From positions 3,802 through 67,801 of the forward strand of contig DASZQJ010000150.1 in assembly GCA_035549715.1 (NCBI GenBank): DNA of 64,000 bases. Direction: 5' to 3'. A program made the translations under genes and the position numbers. Numbering within the stretch: position 1 is the stretch's first letter; each line of letters starts with the position of its first letter. Source of the DNA: Burkholderiales bacterium. GTDB lineage: Bacteria > Pseudomonadota > Gammaproteobacteria > Burkholderiales > JACQAP01. The notes beneath the pieces were generated by a model. The model saw only the letters and a program-made list of their open reading frames with translations, made no database searches and was not told where the DNA came from. Positions 39,757 through 57,181 of the stretch are shown in pieces.

Positions 39757-40209
39757 TCAGCGCGCGGTCAGGGCCGTGCCGTAAGCCATGACTTCCACGG
39801 CGCCGTAACTGCGGGGGTTGCGCCCGGGGATCGAGAAGGTCTGGAACTTCACGTTGACGATCATGCGCGCGCCCTGCTCGCTCGCCTCCTGCTTCATGCG
39901 CAGGACCGCCTCCCGGCGCGCGCGGTCGAGCAGCGATTCATAAGCGCGCAGGCGGCCGCCGAAGACGCTTTGCAGCGAGGACACCACGCGCTTGAAGTAA
40001 TCCTCCGAAACCACCACGCTGCCCGCGACCAGCGCCTGGCCCCCGGCGCCGGAAAGCGGGGGAAAGCGGTTGGAGAACACCAGCACGCCCGCCATTTGCT
40101 TCTCGCGCTCGAGGATCGACCGGTAGTGCCGCCGCTCCGCGATGCGCCCGGCGACGTAGCCGACCACCATCAGGACGAGGAAGACGATCAGGTCGAGGAA
40201 TTCGCCCAT
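39757..40209 (-). CDS. Membrane-anchored YbjQ (UPF0145)-like protein
   Basis: N-terminal TM; 'FGGRLRAYESLLDRARREAVLRM', 'EVMAYGTA'. Confidence 0.85.
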   Translation of the reverse strand: MGEFLDLIVFLVLMVVGYVAGRIAERRHYRSILEREKQMAGVLVFSNRFPPLSGAGGQALVAGSVVVSEDYFKRVVSSLQSVFGGRLRAYESLLDRARREAVLRMKQEASEQGARMIVNVKFQTFSIPGRNPRSYGAVEVMAYGTALTAR

Positions 40210-40212
40210 CGC

Positions 40213-40527
40213 CTACTCCAGGACGACCGCCGTGCCGTAGGCGAGCATTTCCGCCGCGCCCTGCGTGATCGAGGACGTGCTGAAGCGGACATTGAGCACC
40301 GCGTTCGCGCCGACGCCCTGCGCCTGCTGCACCATGCGGTCCGTGGCTTCCTGGCGCGCCTCCTTGAGCAGGTCGGTGTAGCCCTTGAGCTCCCCGCCGA
40401 CGATGTTCTTCAGGCCCGCCATGATGTCCTTGCCGACGTGCTTGGAGCGCACGGTACTGCCCTGCACCAGGCCGAGGTGCTTGACGATGCGGCGGCCGGG
40501 AACGATCTCGAGGTTGCTGATCAGCAT
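40213..40527 (-). CDS. YbjQ (UPF0145) family protein
   Basis: 'GLVQGSTVRSKHVGKD', 'GGELKGY', 'GANAV', 'AYGTAV'. Confidence 0.92.
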   Translation of the reverse strand: MLISNLEIVPGRRIVKHLGLVQGSTVRSKHVGKDIMAGLKNIVGGELKGYTDLLKEARQEATDRMVQQAQGVGANAVLNVRFSTSSITQGAAEMLAYGTAVVLE

Positions 40528-40587: not shown

Positions 40588-41430
40588 CTACAGGCGCTCG
40601 GCCTTGAAGGTCTCGCAAGCGGAAAGCTCGCCGGATTGCAGCCCGCGGCGGAACCAGCGCACGCGCTGCGCCGAGCTGCCGTGGGTAAAGCTCTCCGGGG
40701 CCACGTAACCGCGTGCCTGCATCTGCAGCCGGTCGTCGCCGATGGCCGCGGCGGCGTTGAGCCCTTCCTCGATGTCACCGGCTTCCAGCACATGCCGGGA
40801 CCGGTCCGCATGGTGCGCCCAGATGCCTGCGAAGCAATCGGCCTGCAGCTCCTGGCGCACGGAGAGCTGGTTCGCCCGCGCCTGGTCGCCGCGCGCCGCC
40901 GCCTCGGCGACCTTGCGCGAGATGCCGAGCAGGTTCTGCACGTGGTGGCCGACCTCGTGCGCGACGACGTACGCCTGCGCGAAATCACCTCGGGCGCCGA
41001 GGCGCCTTTCCAGCGTGGCGAAGAAGTCCAGGTCGAGGTAGACCTTGCGGTCGCCGGAGCAGTAGAACGGACCGACCGCGGCCTGGGCGTAGCCGCAGGC
41101 CGATTGCACGGCGCCCGTGAACAGGACCAGGGTCGGCACGCGGTATTCGGCGCCACCGCGGCCGAAGATGTCGCCCCAGGTGTCTTCCGTGTCCGCCAGG
41201 ACGACGGACACGAAATCCCGGGCGCGGTCCTGCGCCGGGTCGACGGGCGCCGCCCGCGGCGGCGGCGCGGACCCGCCCTGCTGCAGGATGACGCCCGGGT
41301 CCACGCCGAAGAACATGGCGATGAGCGCGACCACGACCACACCGATCCCGCCGCCCGCGATGCCGCCCGGCACGCGCATGCCGCGCCGGTCTTCGATGTT
41401 GTCGCTTCGCCTGCCGTCTTCCCAGCGCAT
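40588..41430 (-). CDS. ypfJ: Neutral zinc metallopeptidase (YpfJ-like)
   Basis: 'RRSDNIEDRRG', 'GPFYCSGD', 'AHEVGHHVQN', 'ELQADCFAG', 'SFTHGSSAQR'. Confidence 0.92.
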   Translation of the reverse strand: MRWEDGRRSDNIEDRRGMRVPGGIAGGGIGVVVVALIAMFFGVDPGVILQQGGSAPPPRAAPVDPAQDRARDFVSVVLADTEDTWGDIFGRGGAEYRVPTLVLFTGAVQSACGYAQAAVGPFYCSGDRKVYLDLDFFATLERRLGARGDFAQAYVVAHEVGHHVQNLLGISRKVAEAAARGDQARANQLSVRQELQADCFAGIWAHHADRSRHVLEAGDIEEGLNAAAAIGDDRLQMQARGYVAPESFTHGSSAQRVRWFRRGLQSGELSACETFKAERL

Positions 41431-41444
41431 GCCGGCCTCCGTGG

Positions 41445-42947
41445 TCAGCTTCCCCGGTAGCGCGCCCGCAGCTGCGCCTTCTGCACCTTGCCCATGGCAT
41501 TGCGCGGCAGTTCATCGACCAGGTATACCTGCTTGGGCACCTTGAAGTTCGCGAGGTTCTTGCGCAGCTCGGCGATGATCGCCGCCGGGTCGAGGCTCGC
41601 GTCCTTGCGCGGGACGATGACGGCCGCCACGGCTTCGCCGAAATCGGGGTGCGGGACGCCGATGACGGCGGACTCGACCACGCCCGGCATGACATCGAGC
41701 GCGAGCTCGATTTCCTTCGGGTAGACGTTGTAGCCGCCGCTGATGATCAGGTCCTTGGCGCGGCCGACGATGGAAAGATAGCCCTCGGCATCGAACGTGC
41801 CGACGTCGCCCGTGCGGAACCAGCCGTCGGCCGTGAATTCCTCGCGCGTCTTTTCCGGCATGCGCCAGTAGCCGCGGAACACGTTCGGGCCCTTGACCTG
41901 GATGCCGCCGATCTCGCCCGCCGGCAGGGGCCGGTCGCCGTCGCCGGCCACGCGCACCGCCACCCCGGGCAGGGCAAAGCCGACGCTGCCGGCGCGGCGT
42001 TCCCCGTCCAGGGGATTGGACGTGTTCATGCCGGTTTCCGACATGCCGTAACGCTCGAGGATGGCCTGGCCGGTGCGGGCCACGAACTCGGAGAAGGTGT
42101 CGGGCAGCAGGGGCGCGGAGCCGGAGATGAACAGCCGCACACCGGCGGTGATCTCCCGCGTGAAACCGGCTTCGGCGAGCAGGCGCGTATAGAAGGTCGG
42201 CACGCCCATCAGCACCGTGGCGCGGTGCAGGTCGCGGATCACCCGCTTTGCGTCGAACTTGCGATGCCAGAGCATCCTCGCCCCGGACAGCAGGGCGCAA
42301 TGGTTGGCCACGAACAGGCCATGCACGTGGAAGATCGGCAGCGCGTGCAGCAGCACGTCGCGTTCGCCGAAGCCCCAATACGCAACCAGGGTGCGCGCAT
42401 TCGACGAAAGATTGCGATGGGTCAGCATTGCCCCCTTGGAACGGCCGGTCGTGCCCGAGGTGTAAAGGATCACGGCCAGATCGTCGCCGTCGGCCGCGAC
42501 CGTCGCGAACCCGGCGGGCTGCCGTGCCGCGGCCTGCGCCAGTTCGCCCCCGCCCTCGTCGTCCAGCCCCAGCACACGGGCCCGCCCGCCACACAGCGCC
42601 TGCATCGTTGGCGCGGACTCGGGACGGCAGACGATCACGCTCGGTTGCGCATCGTCGATGAAATGCGCCAGCTCCCCGCGCTGGTAGGCGGTGTTGAGCG
42701 GCAGGTACACCACGCCGGCCCGCAGGCAGGCCAGGTACAGGAACAGCGACATCGGGGACTTCTCCACCTGCACGGCAACGCGATCGCCGCGCATCGCCCC
42801 GGAGGCCACGAGCAGGTTGGCGATCCGCCCCGACCATTCCGCGGCCTGGGCATGCGTGAAGGTCGCCCCGTCGTCCGTCTCGAGCAGTAGCTGTGTTTCG
42901 CGGCCGCGGGCCGCGGCTTCGATCGCCGCGTGGAAGTTTTCGTTCAT
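41445..42947 (-). CDS. matB: Malonyl-CoA (methylmalonyl-CoA) synthetase MatB
   Basis: ANL motifs 'YTSGTTGRSKGAML', 'LHALPIFHVHGLF', 'ERYGMSET', 'GRAKDLIISGG', 'PRNAMGKVQK'. Confidence 0.92.
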   Translation of the reverse strand: MNENFHAAIEAAARGRETQLLLETDDGATFTHAQAAEWSGRIANLLVASGAMRGDRVAVQVEKSPMSLFLYLACLRAGVVYLPLNTAYQRGELAHFIDDAQPSVIVCRPESAPTMQALCGGRARVLGLDDEGGGELAQAAARQPAGFATVAADGDDLAVILYTSGTTGRSKGAMLTHRNLSSNARTLVAYWGFGERDVLLHALPIFHVHGLFVANHCALLSGARMLWHRKFDAKRVIRDLHRATVLMGVPTFYTRLLAEAGFTREITAGVRLFISGSAPLLPDTFSEFVARTGQAILERYGMSETGMNTSNPLDGERRAGSVGFALPGVAVRVAGDGDRPLPAGEIGGIQVKGPNVFRGYWRMPEKTREEFTADGWFRTGDVGTFDAEGYLSIVGRAKDLIISGGYNVYPKEIELALDVMPGVVESAVIGVPHPDFGEAVAAVIVPRKDASLDPAAIIAELRKNLANFKVPKQVYLVDELPRNAMGKVQKAQLRARYRGS

Positions 42948-44206
42948 ACCAGGGTATCGATGACGCCGGATTGCAAGTAGTCGTCCACGCTCGCCGTCAT
43001 GCTGGAGCGCCGCAGGACCCGCGCGATGGCCGCGGGGGGCAGGATTTGCACGCTGGCGCCGGGCAGCGCGATGACGCGCCCCGCCGGCGCCGCGAGCGCC
43101 ACGTAGATGCCCCCGGCGGCCTCGCCGATGACCTGGAGCGTCACCCGATGGCCGGCCTGCCGCAGGCTGGCAAGCACCAGGGCCAGGTGGGAAACGTATT
43201 CCGACAGCAACACGCGCTCGTCACCGAACGTCGGCGCCTGTCCCGGGGAATCGAGCAGCAGCATGATGGCTTCGCCCGGGTGGGCATCGGCCGCGCGCAG
43301 GCACTCCCCCGCCAGGGTCCAGGCGGCGAGCGCACCCACGGCCACGCCGCCGACGAACCCGAAGTACGTGTTGGGGGCATTCGGCTGCAGGCGGCCGACG
43401 ATGACGCCGTCGATCTGCCTGGCGGTGAAGGTCTCGGGCACCAGGTCCTGCATGACCGCGGGCAGGGACGCCCCAACCTCGGCCGGCGAGGGGGCCATGC
43501 CGTGCTCGAGCAGCCGCGCGGCAAGGCGGTTGTGCTGCCCGCGCAAGTCGGGGGGGCCGGCGGGACGCAGCACCCAGTCGATCGCCGCCTGGCGGTAAGC
43601 ATACAGGCTGTCCTCGTTCAGCCGGCCCGCGGACTCCATCGCCGCGCGCGACGTGCCGCCCATGAGCGCATTGACCGCCTGCTTGTCGGACGCATCGAGC
43701 TCGTTGCGTCCGCCGAGGGCCTGGATGACCGCCGGTCCGGACATCGCCAGCCGGGACGCGACGGCATAGACCCGGTGGCTGCAGGCGGTGGCAAGCATGC
43801 TCGCGCCACCGAAGCAGTCGCGGCCCAGCAGCGCCAGCATCGGCACGCCGGCCAGGCGCAGGTCGAGGACCTGCCGGTACAGCTGGCGGAAGGCGCCCAG
43901 GGCCGGCAGGCCTTCGTCCAGGCGCGCGCCGGCCGAGTCCAGGCAGAGGATGAAGGGCAGGTGCTGCGTCTGGTCCTGGCGCAGCATCGCCGCGAGCGCA
44001 TGGGATTCGACGACGCCGAACGAGCCGCCCGCCGTGTCGCGGTCGGTCGCCGCAATGACCACCGGCTTGCCGCCGAGCAGGCCGGTGCCGGCGCGCAGGG
44101 ATCCGGTCGCCTGGGCGGTCAGGGGCGCGTAGCTGCCAGGGTCGAGCAGCCCCTCGACCTTGTCCTGCGCGCTGCTGCCCGACCAGGTGTCGTCCGGAGC
44201 CGCCAA
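42944..44206 (-). CDS. Fused carboxyltransferase resembling malonate decarboxylase beta+gamma (MdcD-MdcE)
   Basis: N-half 'GGSFG', 'DSAGARLDEG', 'CFGG', 'RLAMSGPAVIQ...G..ELD' (MdcD-like). C-half 'LDSPGQ...DE..L...HL...LR.AGH...GEAAGG' (MdcE-like). Stop overlaps the matB ATG; TTG start. Confidence 0.75.
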   Translation of the reverse strand: MAAPDDTWSGSSAQDKVEGLLDPGSYAPLTAQATGSLRAGTGLLGGKPVVIAATDRDTAGGSFGVVESHALAAMLRQDQTQHLPFILCLDSAGARLDEGLPALGAFRQLYRQVLDLRLAGVPMLALLGRDCFGGASMLATACSHRVYAVASRLAMSGPAVIQALGGRNELDASDKQAVNALMGGTSRAAMESAGRLNEDSLYAYRQAAIDWVLRPAGPPDLRGQHNRLAARLLEHGMAPSPAEVGASLPAVMQDLVPETFTARQIDGVIVGRLQPNAPNTYFGFVGGVAVGALAAWTLAGECLRAADAHPGEAIMLLLDSPGQAPTFGDERVLLSEYVSHLALVLASLRQAGHRVTLQVIGEAAGGIYVALAAPAGRVIALPGASVQILPPAAIARVLRRSSMTASVDDYLQSGVIDTLV

Positions 44207-44215
44207 GGGTCTGCC

Positions 44216-45343
44216 TCAGAAGCCGCACCAGCGGCGCGTGATCTCCTCGTAGGCCGCCACGGCCTCGCGGATGCGTTCGACCACGCAGTACTCGTCGGTC
44301 TGGTGCGCCATCTGCGCCTCGCCGGGGCCGAGGATGACGGTGGGCGGCGAGTCGTAGGCGACGTTGAGCGCCGCCGCGTCGGTGAAGTAGGTGGCGACGC
44401 GAGGTTCCGGGCGCCCGCCAAGGTAGGGCTGCATCACGTCGAAGACTTCCTGCATCCACGCGTGCCCGGGCTCGGTGTACACCGCCTCCAGGTCGAGGAG
44501 CGTCTCCAGCTCCACCTCGCTGCCCAGAAGGGACTGCAACTCCTCGCGCAGCTTCGCGTGGTTCACGGTGGGCACCGTGCGGATGTCCAGCGCCATCACG
44601 GCTTCGTCGGGCACGGAATTGATGTTGAGCCCGCCATGGATGGTGCCGACGTTCAGGGTCGCCTGGCCCATCAGCGGATGCGGCGGATTGCCGAAGCGGA
44701 ACTTCTCCAGCCTCGCGAGCGCGTGGGCGGCCTTGAACACCGCGTTCACCCCCTTCTCCGGCATCGAGCCGTGCGCGGTCACCCCGCGGGTGCGGGCCTG
44801 CAGCCAGAACGCGCCCTTGTGGCCGACGAAGGGAAAGTTCGAACTCGGCTCCGCGACCACGACGGCGCCCGCCCTGCCGAGCGCACCGGATTTGCGCGAC
44901 AGGTGGAAAGCGCCCTGGCAGCCGGTTTCCTCGCCGGCGGTGATCACGAGCTCCAGGCCGGCCGACCGGGGCAGCCTGTCCGCCAGGCGCAGCGAGGAGG
45001 CGACGAAGGCCGCCACGCCGGACTTCATGTCGCTGATGCCGCGTCCATACATGCGGCCGCCATCGGTGTCGGCTGCGAACGGATCCATGGTCCATTTCGC
45101 CGCGCCCAGGGGCACGGTGTCGATGTGGCCCGTGAAGCACAGCGGCTTCCTGTCGCCATTGCCGCCGATGGTCGCGACCAGGCTCGGGCGTCCCGGCGCG
45201 AGTTCGTGGTAGCGGGTCCGGAAGCCGGCGTCCTCCAGCAGCCCGCCGATGTGCCGCGCGCAGGCCTCCTCCGCCCCCGGGGGATTGATGGTGTTCATGC
45301 GCACCAGCTGCTTGCTCAGTTCGACGGCATCGATGGTTGCCAC
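44216..45343 (-). CDS. M20 ArgE/DapE-like metallo-deacylase
   Basis: GTG 45343 with GAAGGAG SD; ligands 'GHIDTVP', 'GRGISDMK', 'GEE', 'VAEP', 'AHQTDE'. Confidence 0.9.
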   Translation of the reverse strand: MATIDAVELSKQLVRMNTINPPGAEEACARHIGGLLEDAGFRTRYHELAPGRPSLVATIGGNGDRKPLCFTGHIDTVPLGAAKWTMDPFAADTDGGRMYGRGISDMKSGVAAFVASSLRLADRLPRSAGLELVITAGEETGCQGAFHLSRKSGALGRAGAVVVAEPSSNFPFVGHKGAFWLQARTRGVTAHGSMPEKGVNAVFKAAHALARLEKFRFGNPPHPLMGQATLNVGTIHGGLNINSVPDEAVMALDIRTVPTVNHAKLREELQSLLGSEVELETLLDLEAVYTEPGHAWMQEVFDVMQPYLGGRPEPRVATYFTDAAALNVAYDSPPTVILGPGEAQMAHQTDEYCVVERIREAVAAYEEITRRWCGF

Positions 45344-45353
45344 GTTTGCTCCT

Positions 45354-46079
45354 TCAACCTGCCTGCGAACGGCCGAAATAGGCCGCGCGGACCTCGTCAT
45401 TCTCGCGCAGTTGCGCGGCGGTGCCCGCCGCGACGACGCGCCCCTGGGACAGGACATAGCCTGCGTGCGCGATGGCGAGCGTCTGGCGCACGTTCTGCTC
45501 CACCAGCAGCACCGTGACGCCGCTATCGGCCACGCGGCGAATCACGTTGAAATTCTCGCGCACATAAAGCGGGGAAAGTCCCAGTGAAGGTTCGTCGAAG
45601 ATGAGCAGCGACGGCGCCGCCATCAGGCCGCGTCCGATGGACAGCATCGCCTGCTCCCCCCCGGACATGGTACCCGCAAGCTGCCTGGCACGTTCCTTCA
45701 GGCGCGGGAAGGTCGAAAACACCTGCGCCATGCGTGCCTCGATCACGCTGGCGTCGGCTTCCCGATAGGCGCCCATGCGCAGATTCTCGACCACGTTCAT
45801 GCGCGCGAACACGCGCCTGCCCTCGGGGATGCAGGCGATGCCACGACGCACGATCTCGTGCGTGGGTCGCCCGGTGATCTCCACCCCCTGGTGCAGGACG
45901 CGCCCCGCGCGCGGGGGGGTGAGCGAAAGGATGGCCCGGATCAACGTCGTCTTGCCGGCCCCGTTTGCGCCCAGGATGCAGGTGATCCGGCCGGCCTGGG
46001 CCTCGAGGTCAACGCCATGCAGCACGTCGGCGCGGTCATAGGCGGCATGCACCTGCTCCAGCTGCAGCACCGGCGCCAC
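45354..46079 (-). CDS. Liv-type ABC ATPase (LivF-like)
   Basis: 'GANGAGKTT', 'IPEGRRVF', 'MSGGEQAML', 'DEPSLGL', 'LVEQN'. Confidence 0.92.
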   Translation of the reverse strand: MAPVLQLEQVHAAYDRADVLHGVDLEAQAGRITCILGANGAGKTTLIRAILSLTPPRAGRVLHQGVEITGRPTHEIVRRGIACIPEGRRVFARMNVVENLRMGAYREADASVIEARMAQVFSTFPRLKERARQLAGTMSGGEQAMLSIGRGLMAAPSLLIFDEPSLGLSPLYVRENFNVIRRVADSGVTVLLVEQNVRQTLAIAHAGYVLSQGRVVAAGTAAQLRENDEVRAAYFGRSQAG

Positions 46080-46080
46080 C

Positions 46081-46857
46081 TCAGTCCTCCCCCAGATAGG
46101 CCTGGCGCACGCGCGCGTGCGCCGCCACTTCCCGGAAACCGCCCTCGGCGATCTTCTCGCCGTAACTGAGCACCACGCAGCGCTGCGTGACGCGCTCGAT
46201 CAGGCCCATCTCGTGCTCGATCAGGATCACCGCCAGCTCGGGCATGCGCTCACGCACGGCGAGCAGGTCATCCATGAACTCCCGCGTCTCATCATGGGTC
46301 ATGCCGGCCGACGGCTCGTCCAGCAGCAGGATCCGGGGCCGCCCGATCAGCGCGCGACAGACTTCGACGCGACGGCGGTCGATCATCGTGAGCGAGGCGG
46401 CGGCCTCGAACAACCGGGCCGCCAGCGACGGGCTGAAGGCGGCGAGCAGCTGTCGTGCGGCCTCGACACCCTCGTCATGCTGCCGGCGCAGGCGGTCGCG
46501 GCGCACGAGGTTGGTCCACAGCCCGAGGTCGAGCTGGCGGTGGTTGCCGATCATCAGGTTGTCGAACACGGTCAGCGGCAGGCACAGCCTCGAGCGCTGG
46601 AACGTGCGCGCCACGCCCGCGGCGCACACCGCGCCTGGCGCGGCGCCTGTAATGTCGACATCACCCACGGCAACCCGCCCGGCGGCGGGGCGGACCAGGC
46701 CGGTGACGCAGTTGAAGAAGGTCGTCTTGCCTGAACCATTGGGGCCGATCAGTCCGAGCAGTTCGCCGGCCTCGAGCGAGAGCTCGAGCGCATCGAGCGC
46801 AGTCAGCCCGCCGAATTTCACGGTGAGCGCCCGCGCCGAGAGGACCGGGGCCGTCAC
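46081..46857 (-). CDS. Liv-type ABC ATPase (LivG-like)
   Basis: GTG 46857 overlapping the permease stop; 'GPNGSGKTT', 'LDEPSAG', 'IEHEM', 'AYLGED'. Confidence 0.92.
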   Translation of the reverse strand: MTAPVLSARALTVKFGGLTALDALELSLEAGELLGLIGPNGSGKTTFFNCVTGLVRPAAGRVAVGDVDITGAAPGAVCAAGVARTFQRSRLCLPLTVFDNLMIGNHRQLDLGLWTNLVRRDRLRRQHDEGVEAARQLLAAFSPSLAARLFEAAASLTMIDRRRVEVCRALIGRPRILLLDEPSAGMTHDETREFMDDLLAVRERMPELAVILIEHEMGLIERVTQRCVVLSYGEKIAEGGFREVAAHARVRQAYLGED

Positions 46858-48011
46858 GCGGACTTCCCTGGGACGAAGTAGGTGCGCAGCGGTCGCGGCA
46901 GCAGGCCTTGCGGCCGGAACAGCAGGATGCCGATGACCAGCAGCGCATACAGCAGGAAGCGGTACTCCTGGATCACCTGCAGCTTCTCGGGCAGCACCAG
47001 CAGCAGCAGCGCGGCGGGCAGCACGCCGAAGGCGTTGCCGAGCCCGCCCAGGATCACGATCGAAACCAGGATCAGCGAATCGCCGAACGTGAAATTGTTG
47101 GGCGCGATGAAGCCGGTCATCATGGCGTAGACGGAACCGGCCATGCCGGCCAGGAAGTTGCCGAGGGTAAAGACGAAAATCTTCCAGCGCGCCACGGCGA
47201 TGCCGAATACCGCTGCGGCAGTTTCGTCCAGCCGCACGGCGTCGAGCGACAAGCCAAGCCAGGAACGCTCCATCCGCCGCACCAGGACGAAGGAGAAAGC
47301 CGCCAGGAGGATCGACAGCGCTGCGTAGGCGAGGTAGAACGACGCCTCGACGCCCGCGCCGAGCACGATGGGGTCGTTGAACGACCAGCCGAACAACGTC
47401 ATGGGCGCCACCTTCAGGCCCTGCGGTCCGCCGAGCGTGTCGTTGACCTCGAGGAAGGTCTTGAACAGGATCCCGAAGGCGATGGTTATGAGCGCGGCGT
47501 AGTGCCCGCGGGTGCGCAGCATCGGCAGGATGAGGATCGAGCCGAGCAGCGCGGCGGCGACGCCCGCAGCGGGAATGATCAGCAGCGGTGGCAGCGGAGT
47601 GTGCGCACCCAGCACCGCGGTGGCATAGCAACCGATGCCGAAAAAGGCGGCGCCGGCGAAATTCACCACGCCGGCGTGGCCGAACTGGAGGGTGAGCCCG
47701 AGGCAAACCGTCACATAGAGCGCGACCGTTGCGAGCATGAGCAGGGCGAAGTGGGCGTCGTACAGCAGGCCGGCGGCCACGGCCGGCACGGCCAGCGACA
47801 GCGCGAAGGCCCGGCGCGGTTGCGCCCGGGCGGCGGCTTCAATGCGCGCCGTCGCCCCGGTCAGGCGGAAGGCAACGAGCACCGCGACCGCACCGGCGCC
47901 CAGCGCGGCAATCTCCCATTGCCGCTCGATCTCCAGGAGCAGCACCGGAAAAGCGATGCCGGCAGCCAGCGCCAGCATGACGGCGATGCCGGTCTTCATG
48001 CAGCCGCTCAT
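46854..48011 (-). CDS. Liv-type ABC permease (LivM-like)
   Basis: 'FGIGCY', 'GGPQG', 'ILGGLGN', 'RPQGL'. Confidence 0.9.
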   Translation of the reverse strand: MSGCMKTGIAVMLALAAGIAFPVLLLEIERQWEIAALGAGAVAVLVAFRLTGATARIEAAARAQPRRAFALSLAVPAVAAGLLYDAHFALLMLATVALYVTVCLGLTLQFGHAGVVNFAGAAFFGIGCYATAVLGAHTPLPPLLIIPAAGVAAALLGSILILPMLRTRGHYAALITIAFGILFKTFLEVNDTLGGPQGLKVAPMTLFGWSFNDPIVLGAGVEASFYLAYAALSILLAAFSFVLVRRMERSWLGLSLDAVRLDETAAAVFGIAVARWKIFVFTLGNFLAGMAGSVYAMMTGFIAPNNFTFGDSLILVSIVILGGLGNAFGVLPAALLLLVLPEKLQVIQEYRFLLYALLVIGILLFRPQGLLPRPLRTYFVPGKSA

Positions 48012-48014
48012 CGC

Positions 48015-48932
48015 CTAGACGCGCTCCACGGATTTCTCGGCGATCAGGCCGGTGGGCTTCCAGGCCATGATCAGGATGACGGCGGCGAAGGCGAACACGT
48101 CCTTGTAAGCGGGGACCGAGAACCAGACCGCGCCGGCGGTCTGCAGAAGGGCGAACAGGAACCCGCCCAGGATGGCGCCGTAGACGTTGCCCAGGCCGCC
48201 CACCACGGCAGCCGAGAAGCCGATCACGCCCAGCAGCAGTCCCATGCCGAAGTTGATCTCGTTGTAGTAAAGCCCGTTGGTCACGCCCGCCAGCGCCGCC
48301 AGCGCCGATCCCAGCGCGAAGGTGAGCATCACCACCCGCTCGAAATTGACGCCCATGACGCGCGCCGTTTCAGGATCCTGGGCGACGGCGCGGATGGCGA
48401 GCCCGAGCCGGGTGCGGGTGATGAGCAGGTGCACGGCAACGATCGCCAGGATGCCGGTGGCGAGCAGGATCAGGCTGTCGGCGCGCAGGGAGAAATTCCC
48501 CATCGCGTACGCGTCCGTCGGCAGCAGTTGCGGAAAAGGCTTGGGATTGGATCCGTTCGGATAGAAAAGGCGCACGGCTTCGCGCAGCGCCAGCCCCAGC
48601 ATCAGGGTGATGAGCAGCGTGTTGAGCGGCGGGCTGCGCCGCAACGGCAGCACCAGGAAGCGCGCGATTGCCGCGCCGAGGACCGCCGTCACCGCCAGCG
48701 CCGCCAGGCAGGCGCCCGCGAGCAGGGCGATGCTGGATTCGACGCCCGCATGCCGCAGGCCCGCGTAGGAGGCCAGGGCGGCGAAGGCCCCGGCCATGAC
48801 CACGTCGCCATGGGAAAACTTGATGACGTCGAGCACGCCGAAAAACAGCGTGAAGCCGACGGCGACCATGGCGTAGATCACGCCGAGCATCAGGCCGTTG
48901 AGGATGAACTGGCCTGCGAGTCCGGGATCCAT
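48015..48932 (-). CDS. Liv-type ABC permease (LivH-like)
   Basis: 'QFILNGLMLGVIYAMVAVG', 'AVAQD', 'VVGGLGN', 'KPTGL'. Confidence 0.92.
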   Translation of the reverse strand: MDPGLAGQFILNGLMLGVIYAMVAVGFTLFFGVLDVIKFSHGDVVMAGAFAALASYAGLRHAGVESSIALLAGACLAALAVTAVLGAAIARFLVLPLRRSPPLNTLLITLMLGLALREAVRLFYPNGSNPKPFPQLLPTDAYAMGNFSLRADSLILLATGILAIVAVHLLITRTRLGLAIRAVAQDPETARVMGVNFERVVMLTFALGSALAALAGVTNGLYYNEINFGMGLLLGVIGFSAAVVGGLGNVYGAILGGFLFALLQTAGAVWFSVPAYKDVFAFAAVILIMAWKPTGLIAEKSVERV

Positions 48933-48942
48933 CAGCCGGGAT

Positions 48943-50100
48943 TCAGGGCCTGGGCAGCTTGCGCTTGCCCCGGGCGTACTCGCTGTCCTCCCAGACCATC
49001 CACTTGCCGTCCTGGACGACGAACTTGGTGATCAGGGGCACGGTGTTCTGTCCGTGGTCGTCGAACGTGATCGGGCCGACGATGGACTGGTGATCACGGG
49101 TCGCGTTGAGTTCGCGCATGATTTTCCTGCGGTCCGGGCCGACCTTCTCCACCGCGTCTATGATCAGGTTGGCCGCCGCATAGGCGAACGCGCCGTAGGC
49201 TTCGGGCGGATCCGCGTAGTTCTGCCTTGCATACTGCTCCAGGAAGGCCTTGCCGCCCGGCAGCTTTTCCGCCGGCGCGCCTTCCCTGAAGGCGAGCGTG
49301 CCTTCGGCGAGCGGGCCGAGTCCCTCGATGAAGGCATCGGAAACGATGCCCGAGGTGCCCTGGAACACGGCCTTGATCCCGAGCTTCTCCATCTGCGATC
49401 GGATGCGCACGCCGATCGGCGTGAGCCCGCCGAAGTAGATGACCTCGGGTTTGAGTTCCTTGATCTTGGTGAGCTCGGCATTGAAGTCCTGCTGGTCCGC
49501 GGTCACGCCGAACGTGCCGACGATCGTGCCGCCGAGGCCGGCGATGTCCTCGGAGAAGTACCTGTTGTGGCCCTTGCCGTAGTCGGTCGTGTCGTGAATC
49601 ACCACCCACCTGCGGTATTTCAGGCCCGCCATGAACTTCGCCGCGACGTCGTTCTGGTTGATCATGGTGCCGTTCACGCGATGCACCTCGTCGTAGTCGT
49701 GCGCGTAGGTCACGTCGGGCAACACCGCGCCCCAGATCACCACCGGCAGGCCGAACTTGTGGTAGACGTCGACCGTGCCCATCGCGACGGCAGAACAATA
49801 GTGGGTGACGCCGGCAACGATCTTGCGGTCGGCCGCCGCCTTGGTTGCCACCTGCACGCCGATGTTGGGCTTGCATTCGTCGTCGAGGACGACGAGCTGG
49901 TACTCGTACCGGGTGACGGGGTCGGCATTGCGCACGCGCACCGCCAGGTCGGCGGAGTTGCGGCCGCCGAGGCCGTTGGCGGAGACGCCGCCAGTGAGCG
50001 GGCCGATGAAGGCGATGCTCACCTTGTCCTTGGCCAGCGCGCCGGCGGCCGCCAGCAGCAGCGGCAACAGGGCAAGCAGGCGGATCAGCGATGATGTCAT
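48943..50100 (-). CDS. Liv-type (HAAT) periplasmic substrate-binding protein
   Basis: ATG 50100, signal peptide; 'GPLTG', 'DDECKP', 'THYCS', 'HDTTDYGKG', 'GPITFD'. Confidence 0.92.
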   Translation of the reverse strand: MTSSLIRLLALLPLLLAAAGALAKDKVSIAFIGPLTGGVSANGLGGRNSADLAVRVRNADPVTRYEYQLVVLDDECKPNIGVQVATKAAADRKIVAGVTHYCSAVAMGTVDVYHKFGLPVVIWGAVLPDVTYAHDYDEVHRVNGTMINQNDVAAKFMAGLKYRRWVVIHDTTDYGKGHNRYFSEDIAGLGGTIVGTFGVTADQQDFNAELTKIKELKPEVIYFGGLTPIGVRIRSQMEKLGIKAVFQGTSGIVSDAFIEGLGPLAEGTLAFREGAPAEKLPGGKAFLEQYARQNYADPPEAYGAFAYAAANLIIDAVEKVGPDRRKIMRELNATRDHQSIVGPITFDDHGQNTVPLITKFVVQDGKWMVWEDSEYARGKRKLPRP

Positions 50101-50173: not shown

Positions 50174-50203
50174 AAAAAAAAAGCGGCCGGCGGCCGCTCT
50201 TTT
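50174..50203 (-). terminator. Intrinsic terminator of the atp operon
   Basis: AGCGGCC/GGCCGCT stem followed by nine T on the minus strand. Confidence 0.85.
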
Positions 50204-50220: not shown

Positions 50221-50640
50221 TTATTTTCGGCGCAGCTTGCGGATCGCCGCGAGCTGGGCGGCGAGCATCGAAAGCTCGGCCTCCACCGTGGCAATTTCCT
50301 TCTTGTCGGTGGCGCTGCGCAGGGCTTCCTCGGCGCGCTTCTGCGCCTCCAGGGCCTTGGCTTCGTCCAGGTCGTGGCCGCGGATCGCGGTGTCGGCCAG
50401 CACGGTGACCATTGCCGGCTGGACTTCAAGGATTCCGCCTGCGACGAAGATGAGGTTCTCCTCCCCGCCGCCGGCAGGCTTGATGCGCACGGCGCCGGGC
50501 TTGATGCGGGTGATCAGTGGCGTGTGGCGCGGGTAGATGCCGAGCTCGCCGGCTTCGCCGGGGAGCACGACGAACTCCGCTTCGCCGGAGTAGATCTGCT
50601 CTTCGGCGCTGACGACGTCGACGTGGATGGAGTTGGCCAT
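50221..50640 (-). CDS. atpC: ATP synthase epsilon
   Basis: ATG 50640 '[13 protein letters not shown]', '[12 protein letters not shown]'. Confidence 0.97.
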
Positions 50641-50654
50641 GTTGTGTCTTGCGC

Positions 50655-52118
<1,464 letters not shown>

Positions 52119-52982
52119 TCAGACCGCCGCCGCGCCGGCGACGATCTCGGACAGTTCCTTGGTGATCGAGGCCTGGCGGCTCTTGTTGTAAACCAGCGTC
52201 AGTTCCTCGATCAGCTTGCCCGCGTTGTCGGAGGCGGATTTCATCGCCACCATGCGCGCGGACTGCTCGGAAGCCATGTTCTCGGACACGGCCTGGAAAA
52301 TGACGGCTTCGACATAGCGGGTGAGCACCTGGTCGAGCACCACCTTCGCGTCGGGCTCGTAGATGTAGTCCCAGGAGCCCTCCGGGGAGCCGAGCCTGTC
52401 GCCCGACAGCGGCAGCAGCTGCTCCATCACCGGCTCCTGCTTCATGGTGTTCAGGAACCGGGTGTAGAACAGGACGACCCGGTCGAAGCGGTCCTGGGTG
52501 TAGCCATCCAGCATCAGCTTCACGGCGCCGATCAGGTTTTCCAGGCGCGGGCGGTCACCCAGGCCCGTGGCCTGCGACACGATGTTCGCGCCCAGGCGCT
52601 GCATGAAGCCCAGCCCCTTGTTGCCGATGCAGCAGACGTCGATCTCCTCCCCCTCGGCCTGCCACTGCTTGTACTGGTTGAGCACCATGCGCAGCACGTT
52701 GGTGTTGAGGCCCCCGCACAGACCCTTGTCCGTGGTCACGACGATGATGCCGACGCGCTTGACGGAGTCGCGCTCGACGAGGAAGGGGTGGCGGTATTCC
52801 GGGTTCGCGTGCGAGATGTGGGCGGCGACGTTGCGGATCTTCTCGCCATAGGGACGGGCCGCGCGCATGCGCTCCTGCGCCTTGCGCATCTTGGACGCGG
52901 CGACCATTTCCATCGCCTTGGTGATCTTGCGAGTGTTCTGGACACTCTTGATCTTGGTGCGTATCTCTTTTGTGCCTGGCAT
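52119..52982 (-). CDS. atpG: ATP synthase gamma
   Basis: '[13 protein letters not shown]', 'DKGLCGGLN', 'RQASITKE'. Confidence 0.99.
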
Positions 52983-53019
52983 GTCTTGCCCTTAAGGACG
53001 GATCGCCGTCGCCTGCCGC

Positions 53020-54561
<1,542 letters not shown>

Positions 54562-54573
54562 GGGTCAGTGCTC

Positions 54574-55110
54574 CTATTTCGTGAGGGTCGCGGCCATGCT
54601 CTGCAGCTTGCCGCGGACCGAGGCATCCCAAACCTTGTCGCCCACCTCGACCTTGACGCCGCCGATCAGCTCGGGGTCGACGGTCACGGTGGCGTTGATC
54701 TTGCGCTTGAAACGCGTGGACAGCAGGTTCACCACCTGGTCGCGCTGCGCGTCGTCCATCGGGAAGGCGGAGCTGATCTTCGCGTCCACCTTGCCCTCGT
54801 CCTGGAGGCGCAGGCCTTCGAACAGGTCGCGGATCTCGCCGATCACCGGCAGGCGGCGGTTGTGCATCAGCAGCTGGACGAAGTTCTTCGCGTCGGCGCC
54901 GATCCGGTCGCCGCAGATGGCGAGCAGCAGGCGCTCGACCTCGGCGGCGGTGATTTTCGGGTTGGCCATGGCCGCCTGCATCTGGGGGTCATGGTAGACC
55001 GCGGACAGCAGCTCGAGCTGGTCGGACCAGGCCGGCAGCGCGTTCGTCTGCTTGGCCAGCCGGAACACGGCTTCGGCGTACGGGCGGGCGATGGTTGCGA
55101 GTTCGGCCAT
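54574..55110 (-). CDS. atpH: ATP synthase delta
   Basis: 'ATIARPYAEA', 'LIGGV'. Confidence 0.97.
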   Translation of the reverse strand: MAELATIARPYAEAVFRLAKQTNALPAWSDQLELLSAVYHDPQMQAAMANPKITAAEVERLLLAICGDRIGADAKNFVQLLMHNRRLPVIGEIRDLFEGLRLQDEGKVDAKISSAFPMDDAQRDQVVNLLSTRFKRKINATVTVDPELIGGVKVEVGDKVWDASVRGKLQSMAATLTK

Positions 55111-55131
55111 GGTTGATCCGGTTGGGCTCGC

Positions 55132-55605
55132 TTACTTGAATTCGGCTTCCAGGCCGGACAGCAGCTGGGCGTGGGCCTTGGCGTCGACTTCGCGCTTGAG
55201 GATCTTCTCGGCGCCGGTCACCGCCAGCACGGCCACCTGGGCCCGCAGCGATTCCTTGGCGCGGAAGACTTCCTGCTCGATCTCGGCCTTGGCCGAGGCG
55301 ACGATGCGGTCGGCTTCGGCCTTGGCGGCCGCCTTGGCTTCCTCGACCACGGCCGCGCCGCGCTTTTCCGCCTGGGAAATGATGTCGCTCGCCTGGGTGC
55401 GGGCGCGCTGCAGCTCTTCCGCGGCGCGCTTGGCGGCAAGCTCCAGATCCTGCTTGCCGCGTTCCGCGGCCGCGAGACCTTCGGCGATCTGCTTCTGGCG
55501 CGCTTCGATGGCCCGGAGCAGCGGCGGCCACACGAATTTCATCGTGAACCAGATGAACAGGAAGAACGCCACACCCTGGGCGATCATCGTGAGATTCAGA
55601 TTCAT
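55132..55605 (-). CDS. atpF: ATP synthase subunit b
   Basis: ATG 55605 '[10 protein letters not shown]', 'KFVWPP', coiled coil. Confidence 0.97.
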
Positions 55606-55639
55606 AGTCCTCTCCCCTTGGCCGGGAAGCTCGCGCTGG

Positions 55640-56794
<1,155 letters not shown>

Positions 56795-57181
56795 TCAGTC
56801 GCGCTTTTCGCGGATGAAGAAGGCGAGGCTGGATACCAGCACCGTCGCGATAAACGTCCCGATCAAAACTGCGGCAACCACCTTGCTGTAAAGCGCCAGC
56901 ACCAGCCAAAGCGCTGCCACTATGAACACGATCTTCGCGCCTTCGGCCTTCAGCGCCGTCAGCACAACGTCTTCCGCCGAGCTGCCCCGGCGCGGCACCG
57001 CGATCGAGGCGAACAGCACGCCTGCCGCCATGCTGATCGCGCCGCCGAGGGCCGCCGAAAGCGCCCCGTGAATGCCCGACGGTGCCGCGGCCAGCGCGAT
57101 GGCCGTCCCCGTCACCAGGGCCTGCCAGAGGAGAACGACGCGAAACGGTCGCCTCGTCCAGGCGGATTGCAGTGATGCCAT
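56795..57181 (-). CDS. atpI: ATP synthase protein I
   Basis: Four hydrophobic segments, 'AEGAKI'; first gene of the atp operon; probable ATG 57181. Confidence 0.85.

Follow-up and report, generated by a model that had tools for sequence, protein, structure and literature searches.

A single-chain MdcD-MdcE-like protein paired with MatB as a probable carrier- and biotin-independent malonyl-CoA decarboxylase of Burkholderiales

Can the MdcD-MdcE subunit pair of malonate decarboxylase serve a cell at the level of coenzyme A (CoA) thioesters, with the acyl carrier protein (ACP) and the remaining subunits gone? This question is raised by a locus of a Burkholderiales bacterium (GenBank assembly GCA_035549715.1), located in a stretch of 64,000 nucleotides of contig DASZQJ010000150.1 (positions 3,802 to 67,801; hereafter, the window), where a 420-amino-acid (aa) protein that joins an MdcD (beta)-like half to an MdcE (gamma)-like half (hereafter, the fusion) is encoded directly upstream of the malonyl-CoA ligase gene matB. 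As the original prediction made from the window alone had correctly stated, the MdcD-MdcE pair decarboxylates malonyl-CoA in vitro; the Pseudomonas aeruginosa pair does so with a kcat of 2.3 per s and a K0.5 of 100 uM, and the authors who reported this activity asked whether it has physiological relevance (PMC5534430). The fusion family may represent a natural setting for their question, with the carrier machinery gone, the docking surface deleted, the two subunits fused and a CoA ligase tied to them. Based on sequence comparison and gene context, we propose that the fusion is probably a decarboxylase that acts at the CoA level, independently of ACP and biotin, on malonyl-CoA or, less likely, on methylmalonyl-CoA.

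The architecture of the gene is clear. The original prediction had described one 420-aa open reading frame (ORF) carrying the MdcD-like half before the MdcE-like half, with a stop codon overlapping the ATG of matB, and both statements are supported by our reading of the ORF and by domain searches. The overlap can be read directly in CTGGTATGAACG, where the fusion end and the matB start read ...GGT ATG A..., and at the other end of the gene a GAGG motif (44214-44217) lies 7 nt 5' of the fusion start codon, overlapping the stop of the upstream gene, which encodes an M20-family deacylase (hereafter, M20); all genes of the locus are on the minus strand (Table 1). Pfam assigns residues 33-182 to Carboxyl_trans (PF01039; 58 bits, E 9e-16) and residues 289-401 to MdcE (PF06833; 74 bits, E 1e-20), while the NCBIfam models for MdcD (NF005530) and MdcE (TIGR03134) match residues 39-259 with 128.6 bits and residues 277-401 with 97.9 bits, respectively. 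The comparison of each half with MdcD/MdcE as opposed to AccD/AccA models, which had been suggested as a check, favors the former, since the scores against the biotin-dependent models are only 37.6 (accD), 19 (AccA) and 45.9 bits (mmdA). A profile built from 67 family members agrees, scoring the members at 367-610 bits, canonical MdcD at 134-160 bits and canonical MdcE at 66-107 bits, compared to 70.7 bits for AccD of the same genome, 35-51 bits for genes resembling the beta subunit of propionyl-CoA carboxylase (PCC-beta) and no match for AccA. The downstream gene product scores well above the cut-off of the malonyl-CoA synthase model NF005702 (787 vs. 558 bits), and its closest solved relative is MatB of R. 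palustris (4FUQ/4FUT; 585 bits).

We aligned the fusion to the P. aeruginosa MdcD and MdcE chains and read conservation over the 67 family members. In the canonical pair, CoA is bound mainly by MdcD, with its thiol at the backbone amide groups of Val121 and Gly162, which hold the thioester oxygen (PMC5534430). These two positions correspond to Ala94 (DSAG93-A94-RLDEG) and Gly134 (CFG133-G134-AS) of the fusion, and every family member has G93, G133, G134, G157 and P158. MdcD Arg180, which is near the CoA pyrophosphate, corresponds to R152 (SR152LAMSGP), an Arg in 44 of the 67 members, and MdcE Gln100 to Gln323, the family being almost evenly divided between Q (34/67) and H (33/67) at this position. 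That is, compared to the P. aeruginosa and A. calcoaceticus enzymes (PDB 5VIP, 5VIT, 5VJ1; PMC5534430), the fusion is built from the same two halves of crotonase/carboxyltransferase fold, arranged in the same order, and keeps the oxyanion-hole motifs of MdcD (GG-x and CFGG) together with the equivalents of Arg180 and, as Q or H, of Gln100. Further, AlphaFold2 with the family alignment returned a confident, compact two-domain model (predicted local distance difference test, pLDDT, 92.9; predicted template-modelling score, pTM, 0.94).

What the fusion does not keep is the surface by which MdcE joins the holoenzyme. It holds in one chain of 420 aa what the canonical pair spreads over about 527-550 aa in two subunits, and only ~20 residues follow its MdcE-like core vs. 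about 77-88 in canonical MdcE; a canonical MdcE of the same order matches PF06833 over the whole model (209.6 bits), whereas the match of the fusion covers model positions 5-117 of 196. In P. aeruginosa, the C-terminal extension and beta12 of MdcE touch MdcA and MdcC, and deletion of the extension (residues 241-266) breaks the MdcA-MdcC-MdcD-MdcE holoenzyme (PMC5534430). The loss of this extension therefore argues directly against the fusion assembling a canonical holoenzyme.

The genome also lacks the proteins with which such a holoenzyme would be built. Searches of the whole assembly (3.46 Mb in 180 contigs, estimated to be 100% complete, the window being part of a 100-kb contig) with family models found no PF16957 (MdcA), no PF06857 (MdcC) and no PF05292 (MatA, the malonyl-CoA decarboxylase, or MCD, family), and the sole PF06833 match was the fusion gene itself. 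As a control, we searched the assembly by tblastn with canonical MdcA/B/C/D/E/G/H from a genome of the same order in which the complete cluster mdcA-C-D-E-G-B-H is present (G007), plus one MatA; the MdcA, MdcB, MdcC, MdcG and MatA queries had no match in the assembly, the MdcD and MdcE queries matched the fusion only, and the MdcH query matched a FabD-like gene only. Hence, the earlier observation that the window contains no mdcA, mdcC, mdcB, mdcG, mdcH, biotin carrier or matA was accurate, and for mdcA, mdcB, mdcC, mdcG and matA it extends to the entire assembly, including the MdcC that an mdc cluster elsewhere in the genome could have supplied.

The association with MatB, on the other hand, is strong. 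Across the 25 best homologous loci in the order, with fusions sharing 35-100% identity, matB was directly 3' of the fusion gene in every case. A survey anchored on MatB instead, which covered 301 genomes of the order and recovered 89 orthologous loci in 85 of them, showed the fusion to be adjacent at 42 loci and MatA to be present within 5 kb without the fusion at 17, with both at 2 loci and neither at about 28 (Fisher p = 2.5e-4, uncorrected for shared ancestry); 40 of the 42 fusion-bearing loci had no MatA nearby. The pair was found in several contexts, i.e., after the ATP synthase (atp) operon with or without an ATP-binding cassette (ABC) transporter and the M20 gene, with the M20 gene only, and beside tripartite ATP-independent periplasmic (TRAP) transporters, where an aminotransferase and an FAD oxidase are also encoded. 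Moreover, two representative clusters (899 and 939 aa) are natural fusion-MatB chains, composed of carboxyltransferase-N, MdcE and AMP-binding ligase parts, one of which is WP_083439307.1 from Herbaspirillum autotrophicum. MatB linkage, these natural chains and the in vitro activity of MdcD-MdcE make a CoA-level decarboxylase acting on the MatB product the most economical reading. Separately, one locus (L080; G007:C40:1-12000) has a MatB orthologue (59% identity) immediately after the canonical mdcA-C-D-E-G-B-H cluster, indicating that MatB associates with the ACP-dependent system as well.

Under this reading, MatB would convert malonate, ATP and CoA to malonyl-CoA, which would be bound in the N-terminal, MdcD-like half of the fusion with its thioester carbonyl polarized by the main-chain amides of Ala94 and Gly134. 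CO2 would then be released at the interface with the C-terminal, MdcE-like half, near Gln323 and the Gly365-Gly366 turn, to yield acetyl-CoA, and neither the carrier MdcC and the transferase MdcA nor a biotin protein or MatA would be required. We infer this reaction, a preference for malonyl-CoA over methylmalonyl-CoA and the independence of biotin from the homology, conserved motifs and gene linkage described above.

The fusion is not a rare protein. More than 360 homologues, most of them 417-429 aa long, were found in metagenomes and metagenome-assembled genomes labelled Burkholderiales, under inconsistent names such as 'acetyl-CoA carboxylase alpha/beta subunit', 'malonate decarboxylase subunit gamma', 'enoyl-CoA hydratase' and 'hypothetical protein', and an exhaustive search of representative sequences returned ~60 full-length clusters that diverge to identities as low as about 26%. 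The gene is present in about 42 of the 301 Burkholderiales genomes, including 8 of 8 in the genus of the source organism. A phylum-wide sample of 400 genomes turned up only canonical MdcD outside Burkholderiales, and therefore the family looks centered on this order at this sampling depth; a single-protein search of genome contigs returned only an unrelated Streptomyces carboxyltransferase. In maximum-likelihood trees of each half, the fusions formed one clade (support 94/98 and 90/95), sister to canonical MdcD (94/95) and MdcE (98/96), with the same subclades in both trees, which fits one old fusion event, under selection. That is, the fusions differ from canonical MdcD-MdcE in forming a clade of their own, in scoring below the model cut-offs (see below), in never occurring with mdcA/B/C/G and in being paired with MatB.

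A few members depart from the common form. One locus (L026; G233:C1:1941427-1942572) has a single in-frame TAA in the linker that divides the gene into two ORFs of 210 and 212 aa, but it nests deep within the fusion clade and hence represents a secondary split or a pseudogene rather than the ancestral two-subunit form. There are also longer MdcD+MdcE fusions (P0184 and P0205; 533-591 aa) in which the MdcE match is nearly full-length (178-190 bits), as well as an intermediate type (L055 in G230, family f44) that is divergently encoded from MatB. Given these longer and intermediate forms, fusion between the subunits MdcD and MdcE may have happened more than once.

Several observations weigh against assigning malonyl-CoA decarboxylation to the fusion, or at least against a simple version of it. 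The fusion scores below every equivalog cut-off, namely 128.6 bits vs. 228 for NF005530, 110.9 vs. 278 for TIGR03133 and 97.9 vs. 237 for TIGR03134 (the cut-offs of accD, AccA and mmdA being 317, 300 and 999), so that the function of MdcD and MdcE is not simply transferable. The MdcE Ser142 position, where an S142A mutation lowers activity about 10-fold (PMC5534430), is occupied by Gly365, invariant in the family, and MdcE Tyr102 is replaced by Pro325, which suggests a malonyl pocket akin to, but not identical with, that of MdcE. Position 366 is Gly or Ala across the family, and the Gly365-Gly366 turn of the present protein resembles the biotin oxyanion hole of biotin-dependent carboxyltransferases. 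With respect to structure, the best 50 Foldseek matches in the PDB included only biotin carboxyltransferases as whole-chain matches (E about 1e-20; TMq, the query-based template-modelling score, 0.44; root-mean-square deviation 18 A), and while the two domains fit PCC-beta singly, both together could not be superposed; the packing of the halves was thus compared with single PCC-beta chains, from which the arrangement differs. Finally, much of the synteny with MatB comes from related genomes, at a conserved site after the atp operon, and consequently the locus counts given above are not independent of each other.

The relationship to MatA deserves particular attention, since the original prediction had the fusion replacing MatA as a stand-alone decarboxylase. 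Homology to MdcD/MdcE, linkage to MatB and the absence of matA from the genome support the decarboxylase part, and MatA of the rhizobial matABC type (PF05292/PF17408) has the same proposed reaction and the same MatB-adjacent role, although the fusion matches neither PF05292 nor PF17408 and is not detectably related to it. Replacement holds for the source genome but not throughout: two relatives of one genus (G191 and G048) carry fusion-MatB-MatA in a single operon, and MatA is as frequent in fusion-bearing genomes (11/42) as in genomes without the fusion (64/259; p = 0.85). We therefore rejected complementarity between fusion and MatA at the genome level; only locus-level exclusivity at MatB is supported, and the fusion-bearing genomes with MatA have a single MatB orthologue each, adjoining the fusion. 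Hence, the fusion and MatA are alternative neighbors of MatB and not strictly exclusive enzymes, as they occur together in some genomes and even in one operon, and this, with the equal MatA rate, argues that the two enzymes may not be equivalent; they may differ in substrate. In addition, about 28 of the 89 MatB loci have no decarboxylase candidate nearby, and three loci have the ABC transporter, M20 and MatB genes without the fusion.

Some of these loci are worth describing on their own. No context other than the two fusion-MatB-MatA loci (L038, G191:C72; L046, G048:C1) was found to combine both decarboxylase types; ahead of the operon, these loci encode an FAD-oxidase/Fe-S protein and, divergently, a TRAP transporter with a class-V aminotransferase. 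The three loci with M20 directly followed by MatB (L069, L070 and L073 in G064, G115 and G244, all genomes of 1.8-2.1 Mb) encode a substrate-binding protein, LivHMGF, M20 and MatB, in this order, and a distant fusion homologue (26-32% identity; L044, L045) is found elsewhere in those small genomes, by a different AMP-binding ligase and another Liv-type ABC transporter.

Alternatively, the fusion might be specific for methylmalonyl-CoA or another 2-substituted malonyl-CoA, releasing propionyl-CoA and leaving malonyl-CoA to MatA where the latter is present. MatB-type ligases accept methylmalonate too, the closest solved relative of the present MatB is the R. palustris enzyme, and the residues that bind malonyl in MdcE differ here (Gly for Ser142, Pro for Tyr102). 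The fusion-MatB-MatA operons would also be easier to explain if the two enzymes had different substrates. Nonetheless, we consider this hypothesis unlikely: 40 of the 42 fusion-bearing MatB loci have no MatA nearby and the source genome has none at all, which would leave the malonyl-CoA produced by MatB without a catabolic outlet, the sole biochemical precedent for the fold involves malonyl thioesters, and no sequence feature indicates a methyl pocket. It is also distinctly unlikely that the fusion has some other crotonase-type activity (e.g., as a thioesterase, in CoA-level proofreading or as an isomerase) or is a non-catalytic partner of MatB. Similarity to characterized enzymes is remote, below all equivalog cut-offs and reflected in the inconsistent names, and MatB orthologues function without the fusion in about a third of the loci; however, both oxyanion-hole motifs and the malonyl-site Gln/His are kept down to 25% identity, which argues for catalysis on a malonyl-type enolate, and a thioesterase coupled to MatB would constitute a futile cycle. 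E. coli does have an acyl-CoA decarboxylase that works without biotin and has a crotonase-type oxyanion hole, namely the methylmalonyl-CoA decarboxylase YgfG/ScpB, which is a single crotonase domain that forms hexamers, unlike the two-domain carboxyltransferase pair.

Two further hypotheses would return the fusion to the known carrier-based schemes. The fusion could be a true carboxyltransferase, handing the carboxyl group from malonyl-CoA over to biotin that is bound to a carrier protein without releasing CO2 itself, as is reported for MadC/MadD of Malonomonas rubra. The Pfam Carboxyl_trans match, the biotin-dependent identity of the best whole-chain structural matches and the invariant Gly365 with Gly/Ala366 where PCC-beta has its biotin oxyanion hole are in line with this hypothesis, and the genome does have biotin carriers, including AccB. 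Indeed, AccD/AccA, PCC-beta and the 12S transcarboxylase belong to the same superfamily (PF01039), with the same N-then-C order and the Gly-Gly turn in the C-terminal half. Their sequence likeness to the fusion is nevertheless much weaker than that of MdcD/MdcE for both halves, the fusion is ~100 aa shorter than PCC-beta, and within the superfamily it is a member of none of the biotin-dependent families. Further, the annotated neighbors of the fusion (own operon, ABC-M20 loci and recurring neighbors at the TRAP loci) included neither a biotin carrier nor any biotin-related gene, and the only three credible biotinyl domains of the assembly, those of AccB and of two alpha subunits of acyl-CoA carboxylases, are parts of ordinary carboxylases encoded on other contigs. 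The whole assembly contains no OAD_beta or MadB-type Na+-pumping carboxybiotin decarboxylase, and a Mad-type Na+-pumping system was rejected on this basis; overall, we regard a carboxyltransferase role as very unlikely. Even less probable, to a degree that we would call it remote, is that a carrier protein is still needed and that an unrecognized ACP-like partner replaces MdcC, as would be expected from canonical MdcD-MdcE acting on malonyl-MdcC in vivo. The genome has neither MdcC nor the MdcA, MdcB and MdcG proteins, the MdcE surface that touches MdcC and MdcA is deleted in the fusion, the pair is not joined by any small conserved ORF in its different contexts, and the product of MatB is a CoA thioester and not an ACP thioester. 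Hence, we favor CoA-level decarboxylation of malonyl-CoA as the function of the fusion.

Where would the malonate come from? The original prediction had viewed the fusion and MatB as a two-gene module, which is an adequate description of the conserved core but not of the locus itself, where an ABC importer and the M20 deacylase share the operon. The fusion-MatB pair is at the end of a predicted eight-gene operon, possibly of nine genes with ypfJ downstream (Table 1), in which intergenic gaps range from -4 to 14 nt and the M20 stop lies 9 nt before the fusion start. Two longer ORFs, of 413 aa for M20 and 541 aa for LivG, were rejected in favor of shorter starts based on codon-position GC content and the ends of homologues, and a consensus scan for promoters and terminators inside the operon found nothing above chance. 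The nearest PDB entries of the binding protein are Leu/Ile/Val-binding proteins (E 8e-33). M20 scores above the cut-off of the family model TIGR01910 (241 vs. 217.6 bits) and below those of the DapE (118 vs. 362) and ArgE (195 vs. 298) equivalogs, its nearest PDB entries being DapE 7uoi and ArgE 7rsf. The whole operon block recurs in three other GTDB families, and in the source genome the importer and the deacylase probably supply the malonate.

Table 1. Features of the fusion-matB operon and its borders, in positions of the window
Feature	Position	Strand	Basis or remark
Intrinsic terminator after atpC (GC hairpin + T9)	50174..50197	-	Read by eye; separates the atp operon from the fusion operon
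LivJ/LivK-like periplasmic binding protein, first operon gene	48943..50100	-	ATG 50100, GAGG upstream; Peripla_BP_6
LivH-type permease	48015..48932	-	Domain match
LivM-type permease	46854..48011	-	Third gene of the operon
LivG-type ABC ATPase	46081..46857	-	Domain match; shorter start chosen
LivF-type ABC ATPase	45354..46079	-	Domain match
M20 ArgE/DapE-family deacylase, 375 aa, start inferred	44216..45343	-	TIGR01910
Single-chain MdcD-like + MdcE-like protein (FUS, 420 aa)	42944..44206	-	TTG start 44206, TGA stop 42944
Fusion N-half, MdcD/beta-like, ~residues 1-260	43427..44206	-	Motif and profile matches
Fusion C-half, MdcE/gamma-like, ~residues 261-420	42947..43426	-	Motif and profile matches
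ATGA overlap of fusion stop (TGA) and matB start (ATG)	42944..42947	-	Read in sequence
MatB malonyl/methylmalonyl-CoA synthetase, 500 aa	41445..42947	-	NF005702 and R. palustris MatB match
YpfJ-type Zn metallopeptidase	40588..41430	-	14 nt after matB

Enzymes of the ArgE/DapE type cleave N-acyl amines and thereby free the carboxylic acid. As malonate is what MatB activates, uptake of an N-malonyl compound would be an attractive way of supplying it. That is, it is possible, albeit more doubtful than the decarboxylase assignment itself, that the operon represents an undescribed route for N-malonylated amines or amino acids such as plant N-malonyl-D-amino acids or malonyl-ACC (1-aminocyclopropane-1-carboxylic acid). 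The LivJ-type ABC transporter would import the conjugate, the ArgE/DapE-type enzyme would act as a dedicated 'demalonylase' that frees malonate and the amine, MatB would activate the malonate and the single-chain MdcDE would yield acetyl-CoA. This hypothesis gains support because M20 orthologues of at least 64% identity, found in 27 genomes, are in 27 of 27 cases located immediately upstream of either the fusion-MatB pair (24) or a MatB lacking the fusion (3), while more distant homologues (48-62% identity) are located elsewhere, and because M20 and the binding protein are more conserved across the compared loci (65-89%) than the fusion (35-77%). The strict M20-MatB linkage points to a natural source of malonate. 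In the literature that we searched, neither the fusion nor an N-malonyl amidohydrolase pathway was described, although the coverage was incomplete and this result represents absence of evidence only.

If the proposed function is correct, the fusion would add to the malonyl-CoA decarboxylases a compact enzyme that needs neither biotin nor ACP and has no detectable relationship to MatA/MCD, and, should the N-malonyl route also hold, the single-chain MdcDE would constitute a third, unrecognized kind of malonyl-CoA decarboxylase. Its recognition would correct the inconsistent database names, close a gap in the malonate catabolism of many Burkholderiales from soil and freshwater, and provide a small tool for malonyl-CoA control in engineered strains.

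Finally, the surroundings of the operon are of interest as well. A complete F1Fo ATP synthase operon (atpB..atpC; 50221-57115, minus strand) lies directly upstream, and several Burkholderiales families have the fusion-MatB block in the same position behind atpC, whether or not the ABC and M20 insert is present. On the other side, ypfJ is possibly co-transcribed with matB, but this linkage is not conserved and lies outside the conserved core: among 20 fetched loci of 20 kb each, YpfJ was directly after MatB in two (L028, L043) and ~2 kb downstream in a third (L040). Two tandem genes of the YbjQ family (putative heavy-metal-binding; 39757-40527, minus strand) come after YpfJ, with an M48 peptidase and a 2-oxoglutarate (2OG)-Fe(II) oxygenase encoded further downstream.

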